Below, piece after piece: positions 3,445-12,153 of a stretch of 12,153 nt of DNA (positions are counted from its first letter, which is position 1; each line of letters begins with the position of its first letter). The stretch covers positions 1 through 12,153 of the forward strand of contig JAHWKR010000032.1 in NCBI GenBank assembly GCA_019347805.1, written 5' to 3'. The notes beneath the pieces are model-generated. The model did no database searches. It was given only the letters and a program-made list of their open reading frames with translations, and had not been told where the DNA came from. This DNA is from Methanobacteriota archaeon (GTDB lineage: Archaea; Thermoplasmatota; E2; JACPAO01; JAHWKR01). Position numbers and translations under genes: made by a program.

Positions 3445-3517
3445 GGGCCCGTGGGGTAGTTTGGCATCCTTGTACCTTGGGGTGGTATAGACTCCAGTTC
3501 AAATCTGGGCGGGCCCA
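3445..3517 (+). tRNA. tRNA-Pro-like gene (anticodon UGG or GGG depending on fold). CCA is not encoded. Likely the attachment (att) site of the adjacent integrase.
   Basis: 7-bp acceptor stem GGGCCCG/CGGGCCC. D-arm GGGT/ATCC. Canonical T-arm TCCAG-TTCAAAT-CTGGG. Discriminator A. Anticodon loop has U33 and a purine at 37. The standard register gives UGG with two mismatched stem pairs; a 1-nt-shifted register gives a perfect 5-bp stem (GTACC/GGTAT) with GGG. Both readings are Pro. Confidence 0.6.
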
Positions 3518-3568: not shown

Positions 3569-4507
3569 TCACTGTTCTTCTTCCTCTTCCCTCCGTGTCT
3601 TTGGCACGATGCGCGGGATGCGGATCTTCCGCATCTCGGCCTCGTACCGCTCTTGCGACTCGCTGATGTAGCGCTCGATCGAGCGCTGGTCCGCATGGCC
3701 GGCGTGGTACTGCAGGGCGTCCTTCGACGCGCCGGCACGGTGGCCGACCGTGAGGCCCGTGCTGCGGGTCACGAGGAAATTGACGTTGATGCCTGCGCGC
3801 TTGCAGACCTGGCGCAGGTTGGTGTAGATGGAGTTGGGGTGCATGACGCGCGCTTCCCCGTCGCCGCGGCCGCGGCCGAGCTTGGTGGTCCAGATCGCGC
3901 CGGGGTCTCCCTTGACCTTGGGGCGCCATTTGCGCCACAACTCGAATGGGTTGAACGGGTCCCAGAGCTCGCGCGGCACGATCATCTTGCGGCGCAACCC
4001 GTTCTTGGCCGGGTCGTCGATCTCGACCGTGCTCGCGATTGGATCGAGGTCCTTCTCGCGGAGCTTCCAGATCTCGCTCTTGCGGATCGGGACCAAGAGG
4101 GCGAATTGTAGTAGGGCGCGGCCGCGGAGATGCGACTCTCGGCGCTCGTGCGGTCGACGGGGCAGGTCGAAGACCGGTCCGAACCTCTCGACCGGGAGGG
4201 CCTTCTTCCGAGGTCGCGGCTCCGTCTGCCGCTTGAAATGGAGCTCCTCCCACCCCTTCATGCGTGCCAGGGCGTTCAGTACCTTGACGTCGCTGTTGTA
4301 GCCCCCATAGCCGACCTCCTTGCGCCGTTTGGCGAGCCAGTCGCGACCCGTGGTCCGGGCCGGGCGGATGCCACGCATGAATGTCTTTGCATCGAAGCCG
4401 TTCTTCAGCATCCGCCGAAGTGTGCGCAGGGCGTCGTCGATCGTCGACGGCCTCCGATCCTCGTCGACGGAGAGGAACGTCTCGAAGTCGCTGAACAGCT
4501 TCTTCAC
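3569..4507 (-). CDS. Tyrosine site-specific integrase/recombinase (312 aa).
   Basis: C-terminal catalytic region TRSTGLTVGHRAGASKDALQYHAGHADQRSIERYI matches the XerC/D box II LGHxxxxxTxxYxH pattern, with the nucleophile Tyr in ERY. Sits 52 nt from the tRNA 3' end. Its GTG start overlaps the upstream stop (GTGA). Confidence 0.85.
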   Translation of the reverse strand: MKKLFSDFETFLSVDEDRRPSTIDDALRTLRRMLKNGFDAKTFMRGIRPARTTGRDWLAKRRKEVGYGGYNSDVKVLNALARMKGWEELHFKRQTEPRPRKKALPVERFGPVFDLPRRPHERRESHLRGRALLQFALLVPIRKSEIWKLREKDLDPIASTVEIDDPAKNGLRRKMIVPRELWDPFNPFELWRKWRPKVKGDPGAIWTTKLGRGRGDGEARVMHPNSIYTNLRQVCKRAGINVNFLVTRSTGLTVGHRAGASKDALQYHAGHADQRSIERYISESQERYEAEMRKIRIPRIVPKTRREEEEEQ

Positions 4508-5823: not shown

Positions 5824-5991
5824 TCAGAATCGAGTTTGAATGCTCTCTTTCTTCACGAGCCGGATGTGGTTCCGGACGGCGTCCTTGACGAACTCCGCGC
5901 GGCGCCTGTAGCCTTGCAGACCTTGGGCGACGAGGGCGTCCACCTCGTCGATGAGCTCATCCGGTAGGTGTGTGGTACGATGGCGACCCAT
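5824..5991 (-). CDS. Ribbon-helix-helix (CopG/Arc/MetJ-type) DNA-binding protein, 55 aa. It is below the 60-aa cut-off of the ORF track.
   Basis: Hand translation gives MGRHRTTHLPDELIDEVDALVAQGLQGYRRRAEFVKDAVRNHIRLVKKESIQTRF: a beta-strand, two helices and a conserved Gly. It is the first gene of the minus-strand operon ending in the integrase. A TATA box lies about 24-31 nt upstream of the ATG. Confidence 0.7.
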   Translation of the reverse strand: MGRHRTTHLPDELIDEVDALVAQGLQGYRRRAEFVKDAVRNHIRLVKKESIQTRF

Positions 5992-6090
5992 ATGCGATGG
6001 GTAGCATCATGCGATATATAAGCGTGGTGCAATGTATCGCCTATCCATCGCACGTAAGGCGGTTATGGGGGAGCCACCTGTGTGCCATGA
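5992..6090. promoter_or_regulatory. Bidirectional promoter/operator region between two divergent RHH genes.
   Basis: Locally AT-rich. Near-palindromic TATA GCGATATATAAGCG at 6011-6024. ATGCGAT direct repeats at 5992-5998 and 6009-6015, and an inverted copy CCATCGCA at 6045-6052. These are typical RHH operator half-sites. The minus-strand gene appears leaderless. Confidence 0.45.
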
Positions 6091-6306
6091 GTGGCGCGAA
6101 AGGAGCCGCACCGGACTGTAGCTGTTCCAGAGCGCCTTCTGGATCATGTCGACCGATTCGTTGAGGTGAACGATTGGGGCTATCGTTCTCGATCTGAGGT
6201 GATCAGCGAGGCCATCCGCCGTTTCCTCCGCGAGGAAGAGGAGCGCGTTTGGCAGCGCGCCGAATTCGAGAAGAGGAATGAACTCGAGAGGGATCTCCGT
6301 GGATGA
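6091..6306 (+). CDS. Second RHH (CopG-family) protein, 71 aa, GTG start.
   Basis: RTVAVPERLLDHVDRFVEVNDWGYRSRSEVISEAIRRFL is the RHH pattern. It is followed by a charged helix. An in-frame stop immediately upstream fixes the start. Confidence 0.65.
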   Translation: MARKEPHRTVAVPERLLDHVDRFVEVNDWGYRSRSEVISEAIRRFLREEEERVWQRAEFEKRNELERDLRG

Positions 6307-6679
6307 AGAAGTCCTTTTCAGGAACGGATCTCTGGTCGTGACGAGCTCACGGATTTTCTATAACGGGACGACGTACACCACCAAAATCATCCGCTCTGTC
6401 TCACACACGATGGAGGAGCCGAGCACCTTCTGGCCGACCGTGCTGATTTGGACCGGTGGGGTGGGTACATTCGTGCTGTGGAAATTTACTCGTTCGTTCT
6501 TTTCGCTGTTCTTGTTCATCTTGGCGATTATCGGTGGCATTTGGCGAGAGATGCAGTCCCCGATCTTCTACGTCGTCTTGAACCTCACCGAAGGGGAACG
6601 GCTAATCTGGGGTACGAAGAATTTGTCTGTGGCCCACGAACTCTTGGACGCAATCAACAAGGTGATCGTCCAGCGCTGA
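6299..6679 (+). CDS. Small membrane protein with a beta-rich, bacterial-PH-like (bPH-like) N-domain, a TM hairpin and a C-terminal segment. GTG 6299 is preferred; the ORF track gives ATG 6278.
   Basis: EEVLFRNGSLVVTSSRIFYNGTTYTTKIIRSV resembles the bPH TnrRli motif. Hydrophobic hairpin WPTVLIWTGGVGTFVLW / FFSLFLFILAIIGGIW. Markedly lower GC than its surroundings. 8-nt overlap with the RHH gene. GAGAGGGA lies 6 nt upstream of the GTG. Confidence 0.5.
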   Translation: MDEEVLFRNGSLVVTSSRIFYNGTTYTTKIIRSVSHTMEEPSTFWPTVLIWTGGVGTFVLWKFTRSFFSLFLFILAIIGGIWREMQSPIFYVVLNLTEGERLIWGTKNLSVAHELLDAINKVIVQR

Positions 6680-6721
6680 CGTCCACGACCAGGTCCTCGC
6701 CGGCGACGTCGTCGCGTCCCT

Positions 6722-6760
6722 AGGCCAACTCGGCCCTGGGTCTCCTAGGCCTTCGGCCCG
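6722..6760. repeat. Two short GGCC-stem hairpins within CTAGGCC direct repeats. Possible terminator or protein-binding site.
   Basis: CCTAGGCCAACTCGGCCC and CCTAGGCCTTCGGCCC, each able to form a 4-bp GGCC stem. A further CTAGG occurs at about 6830 and 6867. Confidence 0.3.
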
Positions 6761-6805
6761 TTCGCTGCCACCATATTAGGACCCATCTGGTTAACCTGTA
6801 TCTGG

Positions 6806-7030
6806 ATGCACTCTACCCCCTCCAGGCCTAGCGATGGCTCCGATCGTCACCGTCGGACCATCGCTAGGATCCTGGGACTCCGCGACCACCACGACGTCCA
6901 GGCTCTCCTCGAGGCCCTCCGTCACGAGCTCCGCATCGTCCAGGTCGACCACCGGCTCGACGGCGTCGACCGTGCCCTCATGAACCTCCTGCAGTCGATG
7001 GACGATTCGAACGGGAGACCGGGGGTCTGA
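6806..7030 (+). CDS. Hypothetical small helical protein (74 aa). Strand assignment is uncertain.
   Basis: High GC3. Its stop overlaps the ATG of the next small ORF (TGAGATG). An antisense ORF (6791..7312) has similar GC3. Confidence 0.35.
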   Translation: MHSTPSRPSDGSDRHRRTIARILGLRDHHDVQALLEALRHELRIVQVDHRLDGVDRALMNLLQSMDDSNGRPGV

Positions 7031-7031
7031 G

Positions 7032-7154
7032 ATGTCTAACAGGGGCCGTTCATGGTTGTTCGATGTCGCTCTCGACATCGCCCTGAACGTGCTCCTTGTC
7101 GTCGGTGCCGCCCTTTTCCTGACCTTCCTGGCGGTGATGATCGCTGGCTCCTGA
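7032..7154 (+). CDS. Single-TM micro-protein (40 aa) upstream of the SPFH gene.
   Basis: MSNRGRSWLFDVALDIALNVLLVVGAALFLTFLAVMIAGS. Coupled to the upstream ORF. Below the ORF-track cut-off. Confidence 0.35.
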   Translation: MSNRGRSWLFDVALDIALNVLLVVGAALFLTFLAVMIAGS

Positions 7155-7220
7155 CGAGCTCGAGGACCGCCTCGAGGCCCTACGCAAACGCGCCCAAAAA
7201 CTCCGAAAGAGGACCCCCAA

Positions 7221-8081
7221 ATGATCCTGAAAGACTCCCACCAGACCCGAAAACGGAAGCTCATCCTGAAGACCGTCGGCATCGCCTTGGCCGTCCTCTT
7301 CGCCCTGGTCATGTTCAGCTCGACCTACGTCGTCGGCGCCGGCGAGCGCGCCGTCATCTACAACAGCCTTGGACACGGCGTCCACCCGGAGCCGGTCGGC
7401 GAAGGACTGCACTTCAAAGTGCCGTTCTTCTCGACCGCCACCACCTACGACGTCCGAGAGAACCTCTACAAGACCAGCGCCACGAGCGCCTCGAGGGACC
7501 TGCAGGAGGTCTCGACCGCGGTCGCCGTCCGCTATGCCCCCGAGCCGGAATGGACGCCGTGGATCCACCAGAACTTCGGCGAATCCTACGCCTCGAAGAT
7601 CATCGCACCCGGCGTCCAGGAATCGGTCAAGAGCGCCACCGCGCAATACAACGCCGAGGAGCTCATCACCAAGCGCCCCATGGTCAAGCTGACCATCATC
7701 GAGGCCCTCCGCGAGCGGCTCGCGAAACAGCACATCATCCTGCAGGAGATGGACATCACCGATTTCCAGTTCTCCGAGTCGTTCGACGCCGCGATCGAGG
7801 CGAAGGTCACTGCCGAGCAGCGCGCCCTCGAGGAGAAGAACCGCCTCGAGCAGATCCGCCACCAGGCCGAGCAGCGCGTCGTCCAGGCCCAGGCCGAAGC
7901 CGACGCCGTCTTGATCGGCGCCGAGGCCGACGCGAACCGCACCCGCATGATCAACGAGCAGCTCTCCGTCTCGCCGCTCTACCTGCGGTATCTGTGGATC
8001 ACGACCTGGAACGGCGAGCTCCCCCGCTTCCTGGGCGGCGACGACGTCTCCATGCTCTACGGGATCCCGGAGGAACCGTGA
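7221..8081 (+). CDS. SPFH/band-7 protein, prohibitin-like, with an N-terminal TM anchor (286 aa).
   Basis: GERAVIYNSLGHGV...GEGLHFKVPFF and QNFGESYASKIIAPGVQESVKSATAQYNAEELITKRPMV align with the prohibitin core. A coiled-coil follows (EAKVTAEQRALEEKNRLEQIRHQAEQRVVQAQAEAD). AGAGGA lies 8 nt upstream of the ATG. Confidence 0.85.
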   Translation: MILKDSHQTRKRKLILKTVGIALAVLFALVMFSSTYVVGAGERAVIYNSLGHGVHPEPVGEGLHFKVPFFSTATTYDVRENLYKTSATSASRDLQEVSTAVAVRYAPEPEWTPWIHQNFGESYASKIIAPGVQESVKSATAQYNAEELITKRPMVKLTIIEALRERLAKQHIILQEMDITDFQFSESFDAAIEAKVTAEQRALEEKNRLEQIRHQAEQRVVQAQAEADAVLIGAEADANRTRMINEQLSVSPLYLRYLWITTWNGELPRFLGGDDVSMLYGIPEEP

Positions 8082-8282: not shown

Positions 8283-8600
8283 TCACGCTCGAGGGGGCTC
8301 AGCCTTCGAGCTCCAACGCAGCACCATGAGGCCGAGGACGCCGGCGAGGACCACCGTGGCGGGATTGAGGACCCGATGGTGGTCGCCGACGTCGGCGACG
8401 TCCTGGCCGACGTCGACGGTGCGAGTGTAATTGGCCGCTTTGCCCTCCATCCAGACCCGGGGCGTGCTGTTGATCCGGAAGCCGCCATCATAGCCGTTCC
8501 AGCGGTCTAGGCCGGCGTGGCCCAGCTCGTGGAAGACAGTGACCGCGGCGACGATCCCGATCGAGCCGAGGAGGAACCGGCTGACGTAGCCCATGGTCAC
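8283..8600 (-). CDS. Small membrane protein with an intramembrane HExxH motif (105 aa). A mini site-2-protease-like (M50-like) core. Last gene of the minus-strand operon.
   Basis: TM1 FLLGSIGIVAAVTVFHELGHAG, then a C-terminal TM with NPATVVLAGVLGLMVL. In M50 proteases the second motif is NxxPxxxxDG; here the Asp ligand position is Ala. GTG start in a GTGA overlap. High GC3. Confidence 0.5.
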   Translation of the reverse strand: MTMGYVSRFLLGSIGIVAAVTVFHELGHAGLDRWNGYDGGFRINSTPRVWMEGKAANYTRTVDVGQDVADVGDHHRVLNPATVVLAGVLGLMVLRWSSKAEPPRA

Positions 8601-9148
8601 CGCTTCCGGCGTCGCCTCGAGGGCGCCGGGCTCGAGCTCGAGGTCTTGCGGCCGAAGATGGTCACCGCGGCGACGGCCAGGACGCCAAGCGTCAGAAGCG
8701 TGCTCCCAACGGCCTCAGCTCCGCCGTCCTGCGACTTGTCCCGGTTCGGGTTCTGGTCGCCCGGCACGAACGGATCCACGATGAAGCCAAAGAAATCGGC
8801 GAAGGCGTCGCCCATGTTGCGGACGTTGTCCGCGACCGCTTTGCCGAGCAGTGAGCTCCCCACGGCCAGGCCACCGCCGACCGCAGCCACGCCGCCCGCG
8901 CGGGCCGCGCTGCGGCCGACGATCTTGCCGGGTGTGTTCGGGTCGACCTTTCGGATCGCCCGCGTCACCGCGTCGAGGTTCGCGAGGTCGGCCTTTCTAG
9001 TCAGGTCGCCGAGGTCGTTGTCGAGCCTGTTCGCCAGGTGCCCGACGTCGTCGCCGGCGCGCGTGGCACCGAAAATGGCTTCGTCGGCATACTTGGCGGC
9101 CTTCGGTGCTTTGCCGAACAGTTTTGCGATTCCTGTGCCTAATCCCAT
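8597..9148 (-). CDS. Hypothetical protein with a glycine-zipper hydrophobic segment and a C-terminal TM anchor plus Arg/Lys tail (183 aa).
   Basis: AARAGGVAAVGGGLAVGSSLLG mid-protein. The C-terminus AVGSTLLTLGVLAVAAVTIFGRK...RRRRKR is a TM followed by a basic tail. Tight junction with both neighbours. Confidence 0.5.
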   Translation of the reverse strand: MGLGTGIAKLFGKAPKAAKYADEAIFGATRAGDDVGHLANRLDNDLGDLTRKADLANLDAVTRAIRKVDPNTPGKIVGRSAARAGGVAAVGGGLAVGSSLLGKAVADNVRNMGDAFADFFGFIVDPFVPGDQNPNRDKSQDGGAEAVGSTLLTLGVLAVAAVTIFGRKTSSSSPAPSRRRRKR

Positions 9149-10033
9149 CTATGTCGTGCTCCTTTTGCGTTTCCGTGCGGTGAAAGCGAGTCCTAGGCCG
9201 ACGACGAGCGCCAGGCCGATGCCCATGGCGGTCGGGCGACCCTGGACGTCGACGAGGCCTCCGAGGAGGCCACCATCGCCACCAGGTGAGTCAGATCCAT
9301 CGCCATCTTCTGGGTCGGCTCCGCCGGCGCCGGCGCCGGCGCCAGGTGTGCCGGTGCCACCGGTGAGCCAATCGAGGTAGCCTTCGCTGAATCCGGGGAC
9401 GATGTCCGGATCGGGGCCGGCATCTTGCGAGCCCCCGCCGCCGTTCGTGGCGTCCTTGATGAATGCGATCGTCGGAGCCGCGGCCGCAGCCCCACTGGCG
9501 CCGGCGGCGCCGAGGGCGAGGTTCCTGCGCCAGGCGGCGCGTCGTGCGGCCGCCTCGGCGGGTTCGTCGGCCTTCTTGACCGCCGTCTCGAGGACCTCGT
9601 CGGTCTTGCCACCGACCTTCTTCTCGGCCTTGAGCATGCGGCTGACCAGGTCGTCGCCGGAGTCGAGCTTCTTGGACGCCTTCTGGAATGCCAAGCGGGA
9701 GGCCTCGTCAGCGCTCCTCGAAGCCGTGCTCCCGAACAGGTCGGTCGCCTTCCTCCGGAGGCCTCGTCCGAGGGGACCAAGGGCTTTCAGGGCTCCAAGC
9801 GATCCCACAGTGATCGCAAGATCCGTAACCGCCTCCTTCTTGTTTTTCGGCGAGAAGAAGGCGACCACGTGCCCTGCAGGTCCGAGCGCCGTCGTGGCGT
9901 TCTTCTGGACATTGTCGCGGCTCGGTTGCATCACATCGAGCGGGATCATGCCGCCGGCGAAGTCACGGGCGATCGTCGCGACCTGGTCGCTCTTCTTGTT
10001 CCAAGGCGTGTAGGACTGCGGTGCGGTGGCCAC
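9149..10033 (-). CDS. Lys-rich helical protein with a Gly/Asp/Pro low-complexity linker and a C-terminal TM anchor plus basic tail. The start is uncertain: the GTG at 10033 overlaps the upstream TAG, while the ORF track extends to 10489.
   Basis: C-terminus GRPTAMGIGLALVVGLGLAFTARKRKRSTT. Linker TGGTGTPGAGAGAGGADPEDGDGSDSPGGDGG. The first about 150 aa of the longer ORF are Arg/His-rich and overlap the upstream gene. Confidence 0.45.
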   Translation of the reverse strand: MATAPQSYTPWNKKSDQVATIARDFAGGMIPLDVMQPSRDNVQKNATTALGPAGHVVAFFSPKNKKEAVTDLAITVGSLGALKALGPLGRGLRRKATDLFGSTASRSADEASRLAFQKASKKLDSGDDLVSRMLKAEKKVGGKTDEVLETAVKKADEPAEAAARRAAWRRNLALGAAGASGAAAAAPTIAFIKDATNGGGGSQDAGPDPDIVPGFSEGYLDWLTGGTGTPGAGAGAGGADPEDGDGSDSPGGDGGLLGGLVDVQGRPTAMGIGLALVVGLGLAFTARKRKRSTT

Positions 10034-10770
10034 TAGGCGTTCCTCCCTATCGCTACGACAGCGACGATGATCGCGACGTACGTCACGATGGCGACGTTCG
10101 GGCTCGCCGGCGTCTCGGTGGGCCCTTCGGCCGTGGTGGCGGGCGTGGACGTCGTCGCCGGTGAGGACCTGGTCGTCGACGTCGTCGTCGTCGTCGACGC
10201 CGGCGGGGCGGGCGGTGCGGGCTGCGCGGTCGGGGTGGGTGTGACCTTGGCTTTGGGGGCCGCAGGGGCGGGGTGTGCGGCGAGGAACAGCTTGTCGATG
10301 TTGTCCTGGACGGCGCTGAAGCGATCGATGTAGTGTTTGGTCTCCCAGAATTGGGGCCAGGTCATGCCCACCTGGAACGCCTGGATTCTCTGTTCTCGCG
10401 TCGGCTTTGGAGCCGGCGGTGTGTTCGTCCCCGTGAATCGGCCGGGTTCTGATCTCATTTCGCCCAGCATGGTCTCCGGAGTACGCCAAATGGTGTGCTG
10501 GTAGCCAGTGTGGGCGAAGAAACCCCCTCCCATAGACAACGTGTTGTTGGGGTCACGCTCCTCGGTCTTGCCAGTCGGGTCGTAGATCTCCGTACCCATG
10601 AGGGTCGCGTCGCGGGGGATGCGTGAGAGACGGTCATGGATAGCGGCGTCTGGGATGGGCGAGGCGAACGGCAGAAGGAATCCGATCTGCTGTTGGCCAC
10701 GCCTGTACCCCCTGGAATTGTAGGGTCCGCTCACTCCACCACCGATAACCTCGAACTCAGTGTGCGCCAT
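10033..10770 (-). CDS. Tail-anchored protein: an N-domain paralogous to the next gene, then a Thr/Pro-rich linker, then a C-terminal TM with a short basic tail (245 aa).
   Basis: Linker PAPAAPKAKVTPTPTAQPAPPAPPASTTTTTSTTRSSPATTSTPATTAEGPTETPASP (about 10099-10272). Anchor NVAIVTYVAIIVAVVAIGRNA. No signal peptide. Shares TEI(Y/F)..PTGK and P.P.PxxEQ(R/K)I(Q/R)(A/F)(F/W)Q.G with the gene at 10771..11433. Confidence 0.6.
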   Translation of the reverse strand: MAHTEFEVIGGGVSGPYNSRGYRRGQQQIGFLLPFASPIPDAAIHDRLSRIPRDATLMGTEIYDPTGKTEERDPNNTLSMGGGFFAHTGYQHTIWRTPETMLGEMRSEPGRFTGTNTPPAPKPTREQRIQAFQVGMTWPQFWETKHYIDRFSAVQDNIDKLFLAAHPAPAAPKAKVTPTPTAQPAPPAPPASTTTTTSTTRSSPATTSTPATTAEGPTETPASPNVAIVTYVAIIVAVVAIGRNA

Positions 10771-11433
10771 CTACACCATCCCTCCTATGACGAGGGCGCC
10801 GATCGCGACGACGCCGAGGACCGCGAAGGCCGGGAACTTGCTGACCGGTGCATCCGTGCCGTCCGTGCCGTCCTCGCCAGGATCTCCTCGAGCGCCGATC
10901 GGCCCCATCGGCCCAGGATCTCCCTTCGGGCCCTGAGGGCCAGCTGGGCCACGCTCGGGCTTGGGAAGGAGATCCGTGAGGAGGGGGGCCTTGAACTCGA
11001 TCCGGACGCGGCCGTCGCTCTGCAGCGAGGCGTTCGGGTTCGACGGGTCGAAGGCGCCCCAGAACGTGTCCGGCTGCAGCTTCGACTGCCAGCCCTGGTC
11101 CTGCCAGAACCGTATCTTCTGTTCCGGCGTCGGGAGCGGGATCCCGAGCGCCTGGTGGAAGCGTTCGCTGCCGACGCCCTTGATGACCGCGGTATAGCTG
11201 GCGCCGTCGACGTTGCCACCGTGGAGATACTCGTGGGCGGCCTGCTCGCTGACCCCATAGCCAGGCGACGATCGCTTCCCGGTCGGGTTGATCTCGGTGA
11301 AGAAGATCTCCGTCAAGACCTCGCTGACCGAGATAGGCTGCTTCGGGCGCCCCCAGTGGTCCTTCCCTGCGAGCTCCTGCAGAGCCTGGTTATAGTGACT
11401 CAGTACCACCACCTCCGGGCGGGCGGCGGCCAC
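10771..11433 (-). CDS. Tail-anchored collagen-like protein: N-domain, then 11 G-X-Y triplets, then a C-terminal TM (220 aa, GTG start).
   Basis: GPAGPQGPKGDPGPMGPIGARGDPGEDGTDGTD, encoded at 10852-10950, directly precedes the anchor FPAFAVLGVVAIGALVIGGMV. The N-domain is a paralog of the downstream gene. No signal peptide. Confidence 0.6.
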   Translation of the reverse strand: MAAARPEVVVLSHYNQALQELAGKDHWGRPKQPISVSEVLTEIFFTEINPTGKRSSPGYGVSEQAAHEYLHGGNVDGASYTAVIKGVGSERFHQALGIPLPTPEQKIRFWQDQGWQSKLQPDTFWGAFDPSNPNASLQSDGRVRIEFKAPLLTDLLPKPERGPAGPQGPKGDPGPMGPIGARGDPGEDGTDGTDAPVSKFPAFAVLGVVAIGALVIGGMV

Positions 11434-11581
11434 CCCCGAGATAGATCAGGAGGTTGTTGATCGCCTTCGTGTTGTTGTCGAGCGCTTTTTGGAAGCGCGG
11501 CTCCCGGCGCATGAACCAGAAGGTGACCACGATCGGGAAACCGACGTTCGCGACGAGCTGGACGGTCTCAGGGTCGAGCAT
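11390..11581 (-). CDS. Small single-TM protein (63 aa) between the fibre-like and collagen-like genes. A holin-like role is speculative.
   Basis: MLDPETVQLVANVGFPIVVTFWFMRREPRFQK... has one hydrophobic helix and a basic flank. Its ATG is 3 nt after the upstream stop. It overlaps the start of the next gene in another frame. Mostly GC3-biased. Confidence 0.35.
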   Translation of the reverse strand: MLDPETVQLVANVGFPIVVTFWFMRREPRFQKALDNNTKAINNLLIYLGGGRRPPGGGGTESL

Positions 11582-11584
11582 GGA

Positions 11585-12153
11585 TCAGGCCCCCAGGAAG
11601 GTGACGCTGAGATGCGTGGTAACGTCGGTGAGCGCAGTAGTACCATACGTGTCGAGACCGCCGCCACTGTTTTGAAAGCCTTGCAGCTCGAGGTAGTCGT
11701 TCGCTGCGAGCTCCACGACACCATAGAGAGGCACACCAATGACCTCGGTGACGGCCGCGGGCAGGTAACCCGAAACGATACCACTTCCGGCCCCGTTCTT
11801 GCGGACACGGGCTCGGCGATGGCCGGTGGCGCTCGCTGCAAACACCAAGGTGCCTGTGATCAAGTACTTGCCTGCATAGGGAACGGTCACACGCGTGTTG
11901 TTCACAGCAGGGTCGTGCATGGCGTCCGTGTCGACGACATCGGCACCATCCAGGGCGACGCTCGTCCAATTCGCAGTCGCTATGTTTTCGGCGGCGGCCT
12001 TGATCGCCATACATGCGATCGCGCTGAGTTTCGTCGGGCTGATCCCGGTGGCGACCTTGTCGTCGGTGACGCATCCTGTCCCGAGCAGACTCTCGATGAT
12101 GAAACCGGCGCCCATCTTCGCACGCCCGGCGGCGTCCGCGGTGAGGATCCCGT
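11585..12153 (-). CDS. Tail-fibre-like protein with a C-terminal C1q/TNF-like jelly-roll domain. Partial: the reading frame continues past the window edge.
   Basis: VTDDKVATGISPTKLSAIA resembles the DG(A/S)IT.AKLA repeats of phage fibre proteins. The C-domain VPYAGKYLITGTLVFAASATGHRRARVRKNG...DYLELQGFQNSGGGLDTYG...THLSVTFLG follows the C1q/TNF pattern (KNG, alternating beta strands). There is no stop upstream of Met 12115. Confidence 0.6.
   Translation of the reverse strand, partial: GILTADAAGRAKMGAGFIIESLLGTGCVTDDKVATGISPTKLSAIACMAIKAAAENIATANWTSVALDGADVVDTDAMHDPAVNNTRVTVPYAGKYLITGTLVFAASATGHRRARVRKNGAGSGIVSGYLPAAVTEVIGVPLYGVVELAANDYLELQGFQNSGGGLDTYGTTALTDVTTHLSVTFLGA

Follow-up and report, generated by a model that had tools for sequence, protein, structure and literature searches.

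In bacterial phages that carry a tail fibre homologous to the one described here, holin and endolysin genes follow the fibre gene, accompanied in one case by an integrase module. A JGI locus (L024) presents Phage_tube_2, large tail genes and then the fibre, after which come an 89-aa protein with one transmembrane (TM) segment, a 119-aa protein with two, an M15 peptidase and GH16, and further on, 5 kb away, a serine integrase in a module that runs leftward. Elsewhere the fibre precedes a GH25 lysozyme and then a 1-TM protein (L008), or a 55-aa ORF and then a CHAP domain protein (L007), and small 1-TM proteins lie within three ORFs after the fibre in three more loci (L005, L009 and L010). The sole archaeal relative that was found, Methanofastidiosa virus vir520, shows, after its fibre, a pair of small coiled-coil proteins that carry hydrophobic segments at the C-terminus, and one of these matches the holin family phrog_689 (E = 0.003). 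The stretch from the tail genes to the att/int region is also home to morons and lysogenic-conversion genes.

The window, which is the whole 12,153-nt stretch of DNA that was analysed, belongs to a metagenome-assembled genome (MAG) labelled 'Euryarchaeota archaeon' by NCBI (39,957-bp contig) and holds the following features:

tRNA-Pro(GGG): 3445..3517, plus strand; found by ARAGORN, Rfam RF00005 at 47.9 bits
Tyrosine integrase: 3569..4507, minus strand; PF00589 at 3.8e-8, phrog_216 at 1.3e-15
Divergent ribbon-helix-helix (RHH) pair: 5824-5991, minus strand, and 6091-6306, plus strand; Pfam RHH_1 and RHH_8, sub-threshold
SPFH/prohibitin-family membrane protein: 7221..8081, plus strand; PF01145 at 2.9e-32, phrog_200 at 2.4e-48
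g7 (KY455_10135): 8283..8600, minus strand; 105 aa (103 aa from the ATG at 8594)
g6 (KY455_10140): 8597..9148, minus strand; 183 aa, basic N-region
g5 (KY455_10145): 9149..10033, minus strand; 294 aa, basic helical Ala-rich N-region
g4 (KY455_10150): 10033..10770, minus strand; 245 aa, N-region 1-165, Thr/Pro-rich linker ~166-222
g3: 10771..11433, minus strand; 220 aa, N-region 1-160, G-X-Y 162-194, hydrophobic segment 200-220
g2: 11390..11581, minus strand; 63 aa, YvrJ-family, holin-like
g1 (KY455_10165, partial): 11585..12153, minus strand; C-terminal 188+ aa of a predicted tail-fibre or baseplate protein with a C1q/BclA_C-like tip

The block formed by g1-g7 belongs to a provirus at an archaeal tRNA-Pro. 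This tRNA has a G1-C72 pair, a TTCAAAT T-loop and no encoded CCA, features that we take to be of the archaeal type, and it is likely the integration site (attL side); a second copy of its 3′ end was not found within the window. It is followed by the tyrosine integrase ('site-specific integrase' at NCBI, with a weak match to archaeal XerA), small genes and the divergent RHH pair, both members of which match phrog_38461 (5.5e-11 and 1.5e-7) and which is likely the lysogeny switch. The SPFH/prohibitin gene, convergent with g7 and outside the operon, is provirus cargo or an accessory gene. The tRNA-Pro integration, the integrase and the MAG label all support the archaeal virus origin that a first-pass annotation of this DNA had put forward as one option.

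That annotation described seven genes in a compact operon. Seven minus-strand ORFs are indeed present between 8283 and 12153, all co-directional and packed as an operon, but g1 is not a whole gene: it has no in-frame stop upstream within the window, is marked 'partial' by NCBI, and runs off the window, the contig end falling inside it. An independent gene caller returned the same gene set on the identical Logan contig, and the NCBI locus tags KY455_10135 to KY455_10165 are consistent with it. GC3 in the block genes is 0.74-0.87 vs a GC2 of 0.42-0.57, a pattern that equals that of host genes, and all five of g3-g7 have intact ORFs and a strong GC3 coding signature. A 3-nt spacer separates g1 from g2, and g2 overlaps g3 by 44 nt; the g3/g4 and g5/g6 junctions read TAGATG, the g4/g5 junction reads TAGTG, and g6 and g7 overlap in GTGA (a 2-nt spacer instead if the g7 ATG at 8594 is used). 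Shine-Dalgarno motifs lie 9 nt upstream of the g4 start (GGAGGG), 7 nt upstream of that of g5 (GGGAGGA) and 10 nt upstream of that of g6 (AAGGAG), which, together with the junctions, indicates separate, translationally coupled cistrons and contradicts the idea that they are frameshifted fragments of one large ORF. A 446-aa ORF start for g5 was ruled out, as the Shine-Dalgarno motif and the junction point to GTG 10033 (294 aa), on which NCBI and Logan agree; the start codon of g3 is ambiguous (GTG 11433, 11412 or 11409). Junctions this tight imply co-translation with g1 and g2, so that g3-g7 would be expected to be made with the late genes.

The description of the first gene as C1q-like and fibre-like agrees with its matches: Pfam BclA_C at 22.2 bits (E = 1.3e-4, below the 38-bit cut-off), phrog_13989 'virion structural protein' at 1e-13 over profile positions 454-595 of 597, PDB entries 9eul/9euf (E = 7e-4), and tblastn hits among minor tail proteins and the GP-PDE tail proteins of Staphylococcus phages. 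Judged by these homologies, g1 is a phage tail component, fibre or baseplate. Because the genes related to g1 stand last among the tail genes of Caudoviricetes, a membrane-display or spike module of an enveloped or vesicle-forming element, as previously envisaged, is less likely than a tailed virus. As the contig ends inside g1, leaving head, tail and terminase genes out of view, the case for a tailed virus is the homology of g1 and g2.

The second gene encodes one N-proximal hydrophobic segment (residues 9-24) with a basic C-side flank. It matches Pfam YvrJ (26.0 bits, E = 6.8e-6, below the gathering threshold of 29.5) and phrog_4898 'holin' (7.8e-7), is named 'YvrJ family protein' by NCBI, and can be aligned with the YvrJ-like gene that, in the phi29-like Bacillus phage DLn1, immediately precedes a GH25 + PlyG-CBD endolysin. 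By similarity, g2 is thus a YvrJ/PHROG-4898 'holin' homologue, holin being a PHROG label only, and a literature search found no paper connecting YvrJ with lysis. By analogy with the phages that share this fibre, the block occupies the slot where they keep their lysis cassette; homology of the block to a tail-fibre/lysis cassette extends to g1 and g2 and not to g3-g7. Neither the holin homology of g2 nor the position of the block figured in the first-pass annotation.

The next four proteins carry the linkers that had been read from the sequence, each ahead of a strongly hydrophobic C-terminal segment. In g3, eleven G-X-Y triplets lead to the segment with which the protein ends; in g4, the Thr/Pro-rich linker leads to residues 223-241 and a GRNA end. 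In g5, a marginal hydrophobic segment (174-192) and an acidic Gly/Asp/Pro region (193-266) precede the main segment (267-284) and the tail TARKRKRSTT, and in g6, a Gly-rich marginal segment (84-102) and an acidic stretch precede residues 147-165 and a tail of 18 residues, 7 of them Arg/Lys. Of the single TM with an Arg/Lys tail originally ascribed to all four, the C-terminal segment stands, one in each, whereas the tail is confined to g5 and g6, and the second marginal Ala/Gly-rich segments of these two, which may be two-segment hairpins, make 'single TM' uncertain for both. None of g3-g6 has a hydrophobic N-terminal segment, as befits the reported lack of detectable signal peptides, and the g4 and g6 ORFs start right after an in-frame stop, so there is no hidden upstream signal peptide. 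Flanking charges favour the C-terminus inside (N-out/C-in) for all four, and true tail-anchoring, with the N-terminus inside, is uncertain, the topologies of g2-g7 being predictions throughout. With the same crude criterion, this C-terminal-anchor type was found in 1 of ~250 ORFs in 31 other loci, nearly all viral, and in 0 of 68 proteins of HFTV1; a run of four hydrophobic C-termini is far from a random outcome.

Pfam Collagen matches g3 at 24.6 bits (cut-off 27.2). The G-X-Y repeat of g3 matches 40 PHROG families, among the listed ones mainly tail-fibre or tail families, and the g3 N-region gave no relatives in sequence searches. An exhaustive HMMER search with g4 against 1.84 billion representatives returned only itself and one spurious repeat protein, and g4 has no match in phages or IMG/VR; g5 matched only itself among 5.8 billion proteins, with none in phages, IMG/VR or PDB; and the sole hint for g6 is phrog_37896, of unknown function (E = 1.1e-3), with no match in phages, JGI metagenomes or PDB. 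Taken together, no credible relative of g3-g7 was found in 5.8 and 1.84 billion proteins, 50,697 phage genomes, IMG/VR and JGI metagenomes, every database having been run with only some of the five genes, which agrees with the view that the arrangement is not a named system. Single-sequence AlphaFold models (pLDDT 37.6 for g3; confident only at helices 125-164 for g4) are judged unusable.

The last protein, g7, was confirmed as a 105-aa membrane protein with HELGH, but the motif (24-28) comes after the first hydrophobic segment (5-23) and not inside it. It is followed by an acidic 47-residue loop, DHH (73-75) and the second segment (76-94; NPATVVLAG), and flanking charges place HELGH at the outer membrane surface. 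It has no Pfam, NCBIfam, PHROG or PDB match, even at E <= 10, and only a self-match among 5.8 billion proteins. Its proposed kinship with site-2 proteases (M50) found support in no test run, there being only two segments and no LDG-type Asp in the second.

We consider the most probable reading, at roughly 0.4, to be that the provirus at tRNA-Pro is a temperate tailed virus (Caudoviricetes) of an uncultured archaeon, that the block is the 3′-terminal part of the late operon of this virus, and that g2-g7 form an egress cassette without a muralytic enzyme. Here g1 would supply a tail fibre or baseplate protein with its C1q/BclA_C-like tip, of the receptor-binding type, and g2-g7 would be an egress module adapted to a putatively murein-less host; profile searches found no muralytic domain in g1-g7, as expected for a host without murein. 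Predicted to be N-out/C-in, g2 would accumulate late in the membrane and permeabilise it holin-like, and g3-g6 would be membrane-anchored accessory proteins from the same burst: g3 a trimer with a collagen stalk of ~9-10 nm, g4 on a Thr/Pro stalk, and g5 and g6 perhaps hairpins with acidic loops outside and holin-like polybasic tails inside. The role of g3-g6 could be to tune the opening of holes or to weaken the connection of the membrane with the surface layer, and g7 may coordinate a metal with HELGH and DHH at the outer face of the membrane.

It is unlikely, though less so than the other alternatives, that g3-g7 are lysogenic-conversion or superinfection-exclusion morons that change the lysogen surface or block entry and play no role in egress. 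The block sits between tail genes and the integrase/repressor region, the classic moron location, and abuts probable cargo (SPFH/prohibitin and DUF6232); ORFan status and fast evolution are typical for such genes, and exposure outside is favoured by the charges and by linkers of a cell-surface style (collagen, Thr/Pro, acidic Gly/Asp/Pro). Yet the genes follow one another with no space for a promoter and are translationally coupled to g1 and g2, no PADLOC defence family matches them, and there are no signal peptides for display outside.

More doubtful still is that g3-g6 are virion-borne, tail-tip or fibre-like entry proteins, the N-domain bound to the baseplate and followed by a collagen or Gly/Pro-rich stalk, whose C-terminal helices would enter the target membrane from its outer side and help to open a DNA channel, the basic tails being drawn inward by the membrane potential. 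The location directly after the fibre gene, the collagen-like stalks common in tail fibres (as in the PHROG families matching g3), the absence of signal peptides, which fits cytoplasmic assembly, and the charge pattern of all four, as expected from outside insertion, are consistent with this. Nevertheless, in the profile searches tail-protein families match g3-g6 nowhere outside the G-X-Y repeat of g3, apart from an insignificant tape-measure hit of g4 (E = 0.18); the holin-like g2, normally the end of the structural module, lies between g1 and g3; it would be difficult for a virion to hold four different C-termini of such strong hydrophobicity in solution; and we know of no tail protein of this design.

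That g3-g7 include decaying or non-functional ORFs of a defective, truncated provirus is improbable. They are singletons in one MAG, the AlphaFold models are of low confidence and the sequences rich in low complexity, and NCBI lists no protein accession for g3 between those of g4 and g2, probably from a pseudogene flag or from being left unannotated; the coding signature, the properly spaced Shine-Dalgarno motifs, the precise stop-start junctions and the succession of hydrophobic C-termini speak against decay. Very improbable is the notion that g3-g6 are sorting or anchor substrates of g7 as a dedicated S2P-like or sortase-like intramembrane HExxH metalloprotease that cleaves or anchors them. 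HExxH and DHH do adjoin the two hydrophobic segments on the same side, four co-operonic proteins have C-terminal segments (two of them also basic-tailed), the g3 end (FPAFAVLGVV...) loosely recalls PGF-CTERM and g5 matches GG_III-CTERM at E = 0.08. Against it, g7 matches no M50 or other peptidase at E <= 10 and has the segment count, loop and missing Asp noted above, the four anchors are preceded by no common motif, g3-g6 lack the N-terminal signal peptide found, to our knowledge, in every known sorted substrate, and a chance HExxH is estimated in ~3% of gene sets this size.

The proposed egress cassette, known from a single MAG, is a candidate means for such viruses to exit archaeal cells. 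The haloarchaeal tailed virus HFTV1 has no cluster comparable to g1-g7, and g3-g6, with 183-294 aa and long linkers, are unlike any known lysis protein. The layout of locus L024 is the same as that of the window, and a textbook hallmark of holins (PMC10791045) recurs in the polybasic C-terminal tails of g5 and g6.

The minus-strand block at 8283-12153 is rated, on sequence grounds, as the terminal tail-fibre/lysis region of a tailed provirus, and its design is unusual. It is tentatively read as the late-operon end of a temperate tailed archaeal virus, in which six genes, g2 to g7, would form the egress module; we give this reading a probability of roughly 0.4. The seven genes of the block are numbered g1 to g7 from right to left, and together with their surroundings, in a window of about 65% G+C, they are arranged as follows.

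Left part of the window: host genes for fumarase C, two membrane proteins and a DUF2203 protein
3445-3517: tRNA-Pro(GGG), 47.9 bits against Rfam in a search of the local region (cut-off 29)
50 nt beyond the tRNA: tyrosine integrase gene (PF00589, 3.8e-8; phrog_216, 1.3e-15; weak match to archaeal XerA)
Between the integrase and the ribbon-helix-helix pair: small ORFs, minus strand
5824-5991, minus strand: ribbon-helix-helix gene (phrog_38461)
6091-6306, plus strand: divergent ribbon-helix-helix gene, about 100 bp from the first (phrog_38461)
6278-6679, plus strand: DUF6232 gene (phrog_23009)
6680-7220: non-coding stretch of 540 bp between the DUF6232 and SPFH genes, with no frame-specific GC3 signal and no NCBI gene
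7221-8081, plus strand: gene of an SPFH/prohibitin-family membrane protein (phrog_200, 2.4e-48)
8283-8600, minus strand: g7, 105-aa protein with an HELGH motif; g6/g7 junction GTGA
8597-9148, minus strand: g6, C-terminal hydrophobic segment; g5/g6 junction TAGATG
9149-10033, minus strand: g5, C-terminal hydrophobic segment; g4/g5 junction TAGTG
10033-10770, minus strand: g4, C-terminal hydrophobic segment; g3/g4 junction TAGATG
10771-11433, minus strand: g3, C-terminal hydrophobic segment; g2/g3 overlap of 44 nt
11390-11581, minus strand: g2, YvrJ-type protein; g1/g2 spacer of 3 nt
11585-12153, minus strand: g1, partial gene for the C-terminus of a fibre protein

The integrase beside a tRNA target, followed by a divergent ribbon-helix-helix pair that looks like a repressor/antirepressor-type lysogeny switch, marks a provirus. 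No second copy of the tRNA-Pro 3' end (attR) is present in the window, and therefore the element extends beyond the contig end; a small element ending before the block is rejected on the same ground. The 39,957-bp contig itself ends within g1. The tRNA pairs G1 with C72, has TTCAAAT as its T-loop and encodes no CCA, features that we take to be archaeal rather than bacterial, and the MAG is labelled 'Euryarchaeota archaeon' at NCBI. That this tRNA was unlisted in a whole-window Rfam run at gathering thresholds is a filter miss and no argument against it. Searches of IMG/VR for related proviruses via the integrase and the SPFH gene returned none, or distant SPFH genes only. The DUF6232 and SPFH genes lie within the provirus and run opposite to the late genes, with the g7-g1 block convergent to them, and are probably cargo expressed in the lysogen. 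Between these two genes, the ORFs at 6791-7312 (minus) and 6806-7030 (plus) look spurious, and the non-coding stretch may hold regulatory elements or a non-coding RNA. G+C content is lower (0.55) at 6001-6500. On the host side, two adjacent acidic proteins (1565-2227 and 2255-2869) with four hydrophobic segments each are alike in layout, one of them weakly matching DUF4064, and are probably tandem paralogues.

The seven minus-strand genes proposed by the first-pass annotation are consecutive ORFs with a clear coding signature: GC3 is 0.74-0.87 against a GC2 of 0.42-0.57 in all seven, matching fumC and other host genes. The same genes were called by an independent caller on an identical 3.5-kb Logan contig (SRR15827330), the sole return of exact-protein look-ups for sequence to the right of the window, and the NCBI locus tags KY455_10135 to KY455_10165 are compatible with seven genes. 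Shine-Dalgarno motifs of the kind used by the host genes of the window precede the starts of g4 (GGAGGG, 9 nt), g5 (GGGAGGA, 7 nt; start at GTG 10033, product 294 aa) and g6 (AAGGAG, 10 nt). Given these motifs and the tight junctions, the genes are separate, translationally coupled cistrons; that they might be pieces of one large frameshifted ORF, a concern attached to the original claim, is ruled out by the Shine-Dalgarno motifs and the start codons at each junction. A scan for sigma-70 promoters and terminators gave no informative result.

Several peculiarities of the block deserve mention in their own right. Stop codons are TGA in 13/13 genes outside it, and TAG in g3, g4 and g5 (at 10771, 10033 and 9149; Fisher p ~0.03). 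The g3/g4 and g5/g6 pairs are in frame, and read-through of TAG, for example by pyrrolysine insertion or a suppressor, would yield fusions with two anchors; the Shine-Dalgarno motifs ahead of g4 and g6 speak for separate cistrons instead, and neither pylT nor a suppressor tRNA is found within the window. NCBI protein accessions pass from g4 (MBW3583447) directly to g2 (MBW3583448), so that g3 has no NCBI protein; it was probably flagged as a pseudogene or omitted, and its 220-aa product is recorded solely in the Logan gene calls. A 36-nt inverted repeat (33/36 matches) has one arm at 6678-6713 on the plus strand, beginning at the DUF6232 stop codon on the edge of the non-coding gap, and the other at 10148-10183, in the Thr/Pro linker of g4. 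The similarity is confined to about 40 nt and, by our own estimate, is well above chance expectation for 12 kb. A minus-strand transcript across the first arm would be antisense to g4 mRNA; as a structured RNA the repeat was discarded, since folding of the first-arm region gave no stable structure (z = -0.6).

The right-hand end of the block ties it to tailed viruses. The gene g1 is a fragment, with no upstream stop in the window and a 'partial' label at NCBI, and the fibre-like, C1q/TNF-like character first attributed to it is borne out. It matches phrog_13989 ('virion structural protein') at 1e-13, over the last 140 positions of a 597-position profile, and by tblastn it finds 213 phage records, among them Mycobacterium phage proteins annotated as minor tail proteins and the GP-PDE tail protein of Staphylococcus phages. 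The solved structures 9eul and 9euf, of a GP-PDE protein that we take to be the annotated tail protein of its Staphylococcus phage, are matched at E 7e-4. Pfam BclA_C is hit below threshold (22.2 bits; cut-off 38). With the family profile and phage tail homology together, g1 is assigned as a putative fibre tip of the C1q/TNF-like BclA_C type. It also matches a protein of the Methanofastidiosa virus vir520.

The adjacent gene, g2, is named a YvrJ family protein by NCBI and matches phrog_4898 ('holin') at 7.8e-7. It shares with that family the VQLV.N.GFPIV ... L..NT.AI..L pattern, the size and a single N-proximal hydrophobic segment, and differs in a Pfam score marginally under the gathering cut-off (PF12841; 26.0 bits, E 6.8e-6, cut-off 29.5). 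The relatives found are in phages of Bacillus and Hungatella, presumably all Bacillota. The 63-aa product has a hydrophobic segment at residues 9-24 and five basic residues in the next 15, as small holins do. In the phi29-like Bacillus phage DLn1 it aligns with a 54-aa gene that lies directly upstream of an endolysin with GH25 and PlyG-CBD domains and of the packaging ATPase, a position that we take, from phi29, to be the holin slot. A holin role is a candidate reading of g2. In the literature searched, hole formation by the YvrJ family is undocumented and no link of YvrJ to lysis was found.

What follows the fibre gene in related loci is consistent with this idea. In the IMG/VR locus L008 the order is fibre, GH25 and a protein with one transmembrane segment (1-TM); in L007 it is fibre, a 55-aa ORF and a CHAP domain protein; and in three further IMG/VR loci (L005, L009, L010) small 1-TM proteins lie at most three ORFs from the fibre. 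The JGI locus L024 (72% G+C) runs from Phage_tube_2 through two large tail genes to the fibre; next come a 1-TM coiled-coil protein of 89 aa, a 2-TM protein of 119 aa, an M15 peptidase and GH16, and 5 kb away a leftward, reverse-oriented module with a serine integrase, an overall layout like that of the window. The place equivalent to that of g2, which begins 3 nt past g1, is held in L007, L008, L024 and DLn1 by verified lysins or holin-like genes. From this gene order it follows that g2-g7 occupy the position used for lysis genes in phages with such a fibre. The enzyme of a canonical cassette, muralytic or pseudomurein-cleaving, is missing: there is no endolysin gene beside g2, g3-g7 contain no muralytic domain, and g2-g7 match no GH, amidase, peptidase or Pei-type family in Pfam, PHROGs and NCBIfam.

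The context, homologies, gene order, coupling and protein architecture behind the egress reading are observed, and the timing, topology and activity it assigns to the proteins are predictions. In it, g2 would permeabilise the membrane in the manner of a holin, with g3-g6 expressed alongside as accessory proteins anchored in the membrane and g7 as a partner that may bind metal; a muralytic enzyme would be absent because the host has no murein. As an alternative, the block might be cargo for lysogenic conversion or exclusion, consistent with its place next to the SPFH and DUF6232 genes and with its surface-style linkers; the coupling to g1 and g2 speaks against this, and we consider it unlikely.

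The accessory role in the egress reading falls to g3-g6, each of which had been described as carrying a low-complexity linker, a single C-terminal transmembrane segment with an Arg/Lys tail and no signal peptide. The linkers are all present: a collagen-like run of 11 G-X-Y triplets in g3 (residues 162-194), a Thr/Pro-rich stretch in g4, an acidic Gly/Asp/Pro stretch in g5 and a Gly-rich segment in g6. The absence of signal peptides is upheld as well, with no hydrophobic stretch in the first 45 residues by hydropathy; g4 and g6 begin directly after an in-frame stop, and therefore cannot have a hidden one. The single anchor survives in part, as each protein has one strongly hydrophobic C-terminal segment (crude Hessa-scale sums of -0.9, 2.4, 0.6 and -0.2 for g3 to g6), and g5 and g6 each have a second, marginal Ala/Gly-rich one (174-192 and 84-102, respectively). 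The crude insertion score of the marginal segments, 4.7, equals that of the second segment of g7 and is about that of the g2 and g7 segments accepted as membrane-spanning. The basic tail is real, and polybasic, in g5 and g6, and is not shared by g4, which ends in GRNA, or by g3, which ends with its hydrophobic segment. By the same crude criterion, C-terminal-anchor proteins account for 1 of about 250 ORFs in 31 other fetched loci, nearly all viral, and for none of the 68 proteins encoded by HFTV1, a tailed virus of haloarchaea; four in succession are not due to chance.

The orientation of these proteins can be predicted from their charges. On its N side, the C-terminal segment of g3-g6 is bordered by neutral to acidic sequence; on its C side there is no flank in g3, a charge of +1 in g4, and an abundance of Arg/Lys in g5 (5 in a 10-residue tail) and g6 (7 in a tail of 18 residues, 5 of them within the first 15). 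The positive-inside rule predicts cytoplasmic C-termini for all four, which conflicts with classical tail-anchoring of g5 and g6. If the marginal segments span the membrane, g5 and g6 would be hairpins (N-in/C-in) whose acidic loop is external and whose polybasic tail is holin-like, and the topology paradox would disappear. Tail-anchored membrane proteins are the clients of GET/TRC-type systems, and Get3/ArsA homologues occur in archaea. Like such proteins, g3 and g4 have, by hydropathy, one transmembrane segment within about 30 residues of the C-terminus (0 and 4 residues follow it) and no N-terminal signal, and they are compatible with true tail-anchoring, the stalk and N-domain being cytoplasmic; g5 and g6 differ in their longer polybasic tails and possible second segments. 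Nothing relevant was found in the literature on tail-anchored proteins in archaeal viruses. That these are instead virion entry proteins, inserting into the membrane from outside, is quite unlikely.

Within the set, g3 (residues 99-124) and g4 (121-151) share the pattern P.PT.EQ.I..Q...W..K..D.F just ahead of their linkers (pairwise BLASTP E 0.018), which may be the remnant of a common module. Paralogy among g3-g6 as a whole was rejected, as this short motif is the only similarity and g5 and g6 show none. Single-sequence AlphaFold2 models of the N-domains have pLDDT values of 37.6 (g3) and 56.3 (g4), too low for a fold search, the only confident region in g4 being a helical hairpin at 125-164.

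The proteins that follow g2 have almost no recognisable relatives. Searches of 5.8 billion proteins (k-mer/HMMER) with g5 and g7 returned only the queries, and an exhaustive HMMER search of 1.84 billion representatives with the g4 N-domain returned itself and one repeat-driven match, apparently a eukaryotic secreted protein, that was rejected as spurious. No match below E 0.3 was obtained by tblastn against 50,697 phage genomes for the N-terminal regions of g3 and g4, g5 or g6; scans of IMG/VR with g2, g4 and g5, and of JGI metagenomes with g6 and the g3 N-terminal region, also gave none. Pfam, PHROGs, NCBIfam, PADLOC and PDB sequences hold nothing for g4-g7 beyond low-complexity noise and one unannotated PHROG matched by g6 at 1e-3; the collagen repeat of g3 matches family libraries. 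Clusters at 90% identity are all singletons. Decaying ORFs could also be without relatives, and as an account of genes with a host-like coding signature and Shine-Dalgarno motifs they seem improbable.

The last gene, g7, had been seen as a small relative of site-2 proteases (M50) with HELGH inside a transmembrane helix. The motif, at residues 24-28, directly follows a hydrophobic segment (5-23) and does not lie inside it; as in M50 peptidases, an HExxH thus abuts a membrane helix, and ...VTVFHELGHA... resembles M50 motif 1, a likeness extending to small HExxH metallopeptidases. The M50 core has at least three helices, with an NxxPxxxxDG (LDG) motif in a later helix giving the third zinc ligand. 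The differences are substantial: g7 has two hydrophobic segments in total and no such motif, and its HELGH is predicted to lie at the outer membrane surface. In the second segment, RVLNPATVVLAGVLGLMVL, Ala stands where an Asp is expected, so that NPATVVLAG offers no Asp as a third metal ligand. Nor is there any match at E <= 10 in Pfam or the PDB, S2P chains included, or any match in NCBIfam or PHROG, and the resemblance to site-2 proteases is not sustained. Minigluzincins are small HExxH mini metallopeptidases; g7 is too small for the zincin fold. By charges, its 47-residue acidic loop is predicted to be external, bounded by HELGH and DHH, and g7 is possibly a small metal-binding membrane protein. 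By our own estimate, a few percent of gene sets this large would contain an HExxH by chance. The system of a protease and its substrates suggested by the first-pass annotation, resting on the adjacency of HExxH to a membrane helix, is with these deviations from M50 very improbable.

A stronger form of the egress reading can be stated, in which g2-g7 would be complete and self-sufficient, a bacterial-type (YvrJ/PHROG-4898) holin acting with four stalked, anchored proteins and a metal-binding membrane protein that disrupt or detach surface layer and membrane without a muralytic enzyme. This is doubtful; if true, it would establish a lysis system of a new type, the first discoverable from sequence for envelopes that contain neither murein nor pseudomurein. 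The route by which archaeal tailed viruses leave cells that lack a murein wall is recognised as an unsolved problem. According to a review of 2024, holin genes 'remain elusive' in the genomes of archaeal viruses (PMC10791045), no holin was found on archaeal tailed virus genomes in the HRTV-DL1 study (bioRxiv 10.1101/2022.10.18.512658), and later work offers computational holin candidates only (PMC11705971 supplement; PMC12596118). As such candidates are already listed, a holin-like gene in an archaeal provirus is not a first. What the locus adds is a short, defined group of six genes placed where lysis genes canonically lie, including one that is recognisable by sequence as a member of a phage 'holin' family. 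Should g3-g6 act with g2, they would represent a new class of viral membrane effectors built of domain, stalk and C-terminal anchor; should they not, the block is an unremarkable run of viral ORFans. As it is known as a singleton, from one truncated MAG contig, it is too early to say how important it is in general.

Compared with known surface proteins, g3-g6 resemble substrates of LPXTG/sortase or PGF-CTERM/archaeosortase systems in their low-complexity stalk and C-terminal hydrophobic segment, some of them also in a basic tail, and differ in having no N-terminal signal peptide and no conserved signature motif. Sorting signals of this type were rejected, as g3-g6 have no N-terminal hydrophobic segment or shared motif and the window contains no sortase or archaeosortase gene; the only xxx-CTERM match is of g5 to GG_III-CTERM, at E 0.08. 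The G-X-Y repeats of g3 and the BclA_C-type domain of g1 recall the collagen-like surface proteins Scl1/2, Lcl and BclA, although here the collagen repeat and the C1q-like domain belong to separate proteins.

The closest likeness in gene order is to the phage late-operon ends of L024, L007, L008 and DLn1, in which the fibre is likewise followed by small membrane proteins; g1 is homologous to the fibre gene of the first three and g2 to the holin-position gene of DLn1. Unlike these, the window has no GH25, CHAP or M15 enzyme, five membrane ORFans of 105-294 aa standing in its place, and its host is an archaeon. No counterpart was found for five membrane ORFans with four serial C-terminal anchors on different stalks, HFTV1 having none and vir520 (BK063667; Caudoviricetes sp., host Methanofastidiosa) being much simpler. 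The two vir520 proteins encoded after its fibre gene are small coiled-coil paralogues, and it has no long linkers, HExxH protein, YvrJ homologue or similarity to g3-g7. Nevertheless, vir520 is an archaeal tailed virus with a homologous phrog_13989 fibre-tip protein, the only archaeal relative with such a fibre found, and after its fibre gene come two consecutive genes whose products lack a signal peptide and have a hydrophobic segment at the C-terminus. The products are paralogues (86 and 72 aa) that both begin with a coiled-coil region (L003 6368-6628; L027 3-221), and one of them weakly matches the holin family phrog_689 (E 0.003), which serves as a holin annotation for archaeal proviruses in a published supplement (PMC11705971). 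The vir520 arrangement is thus a simpler parallel to that of the window.
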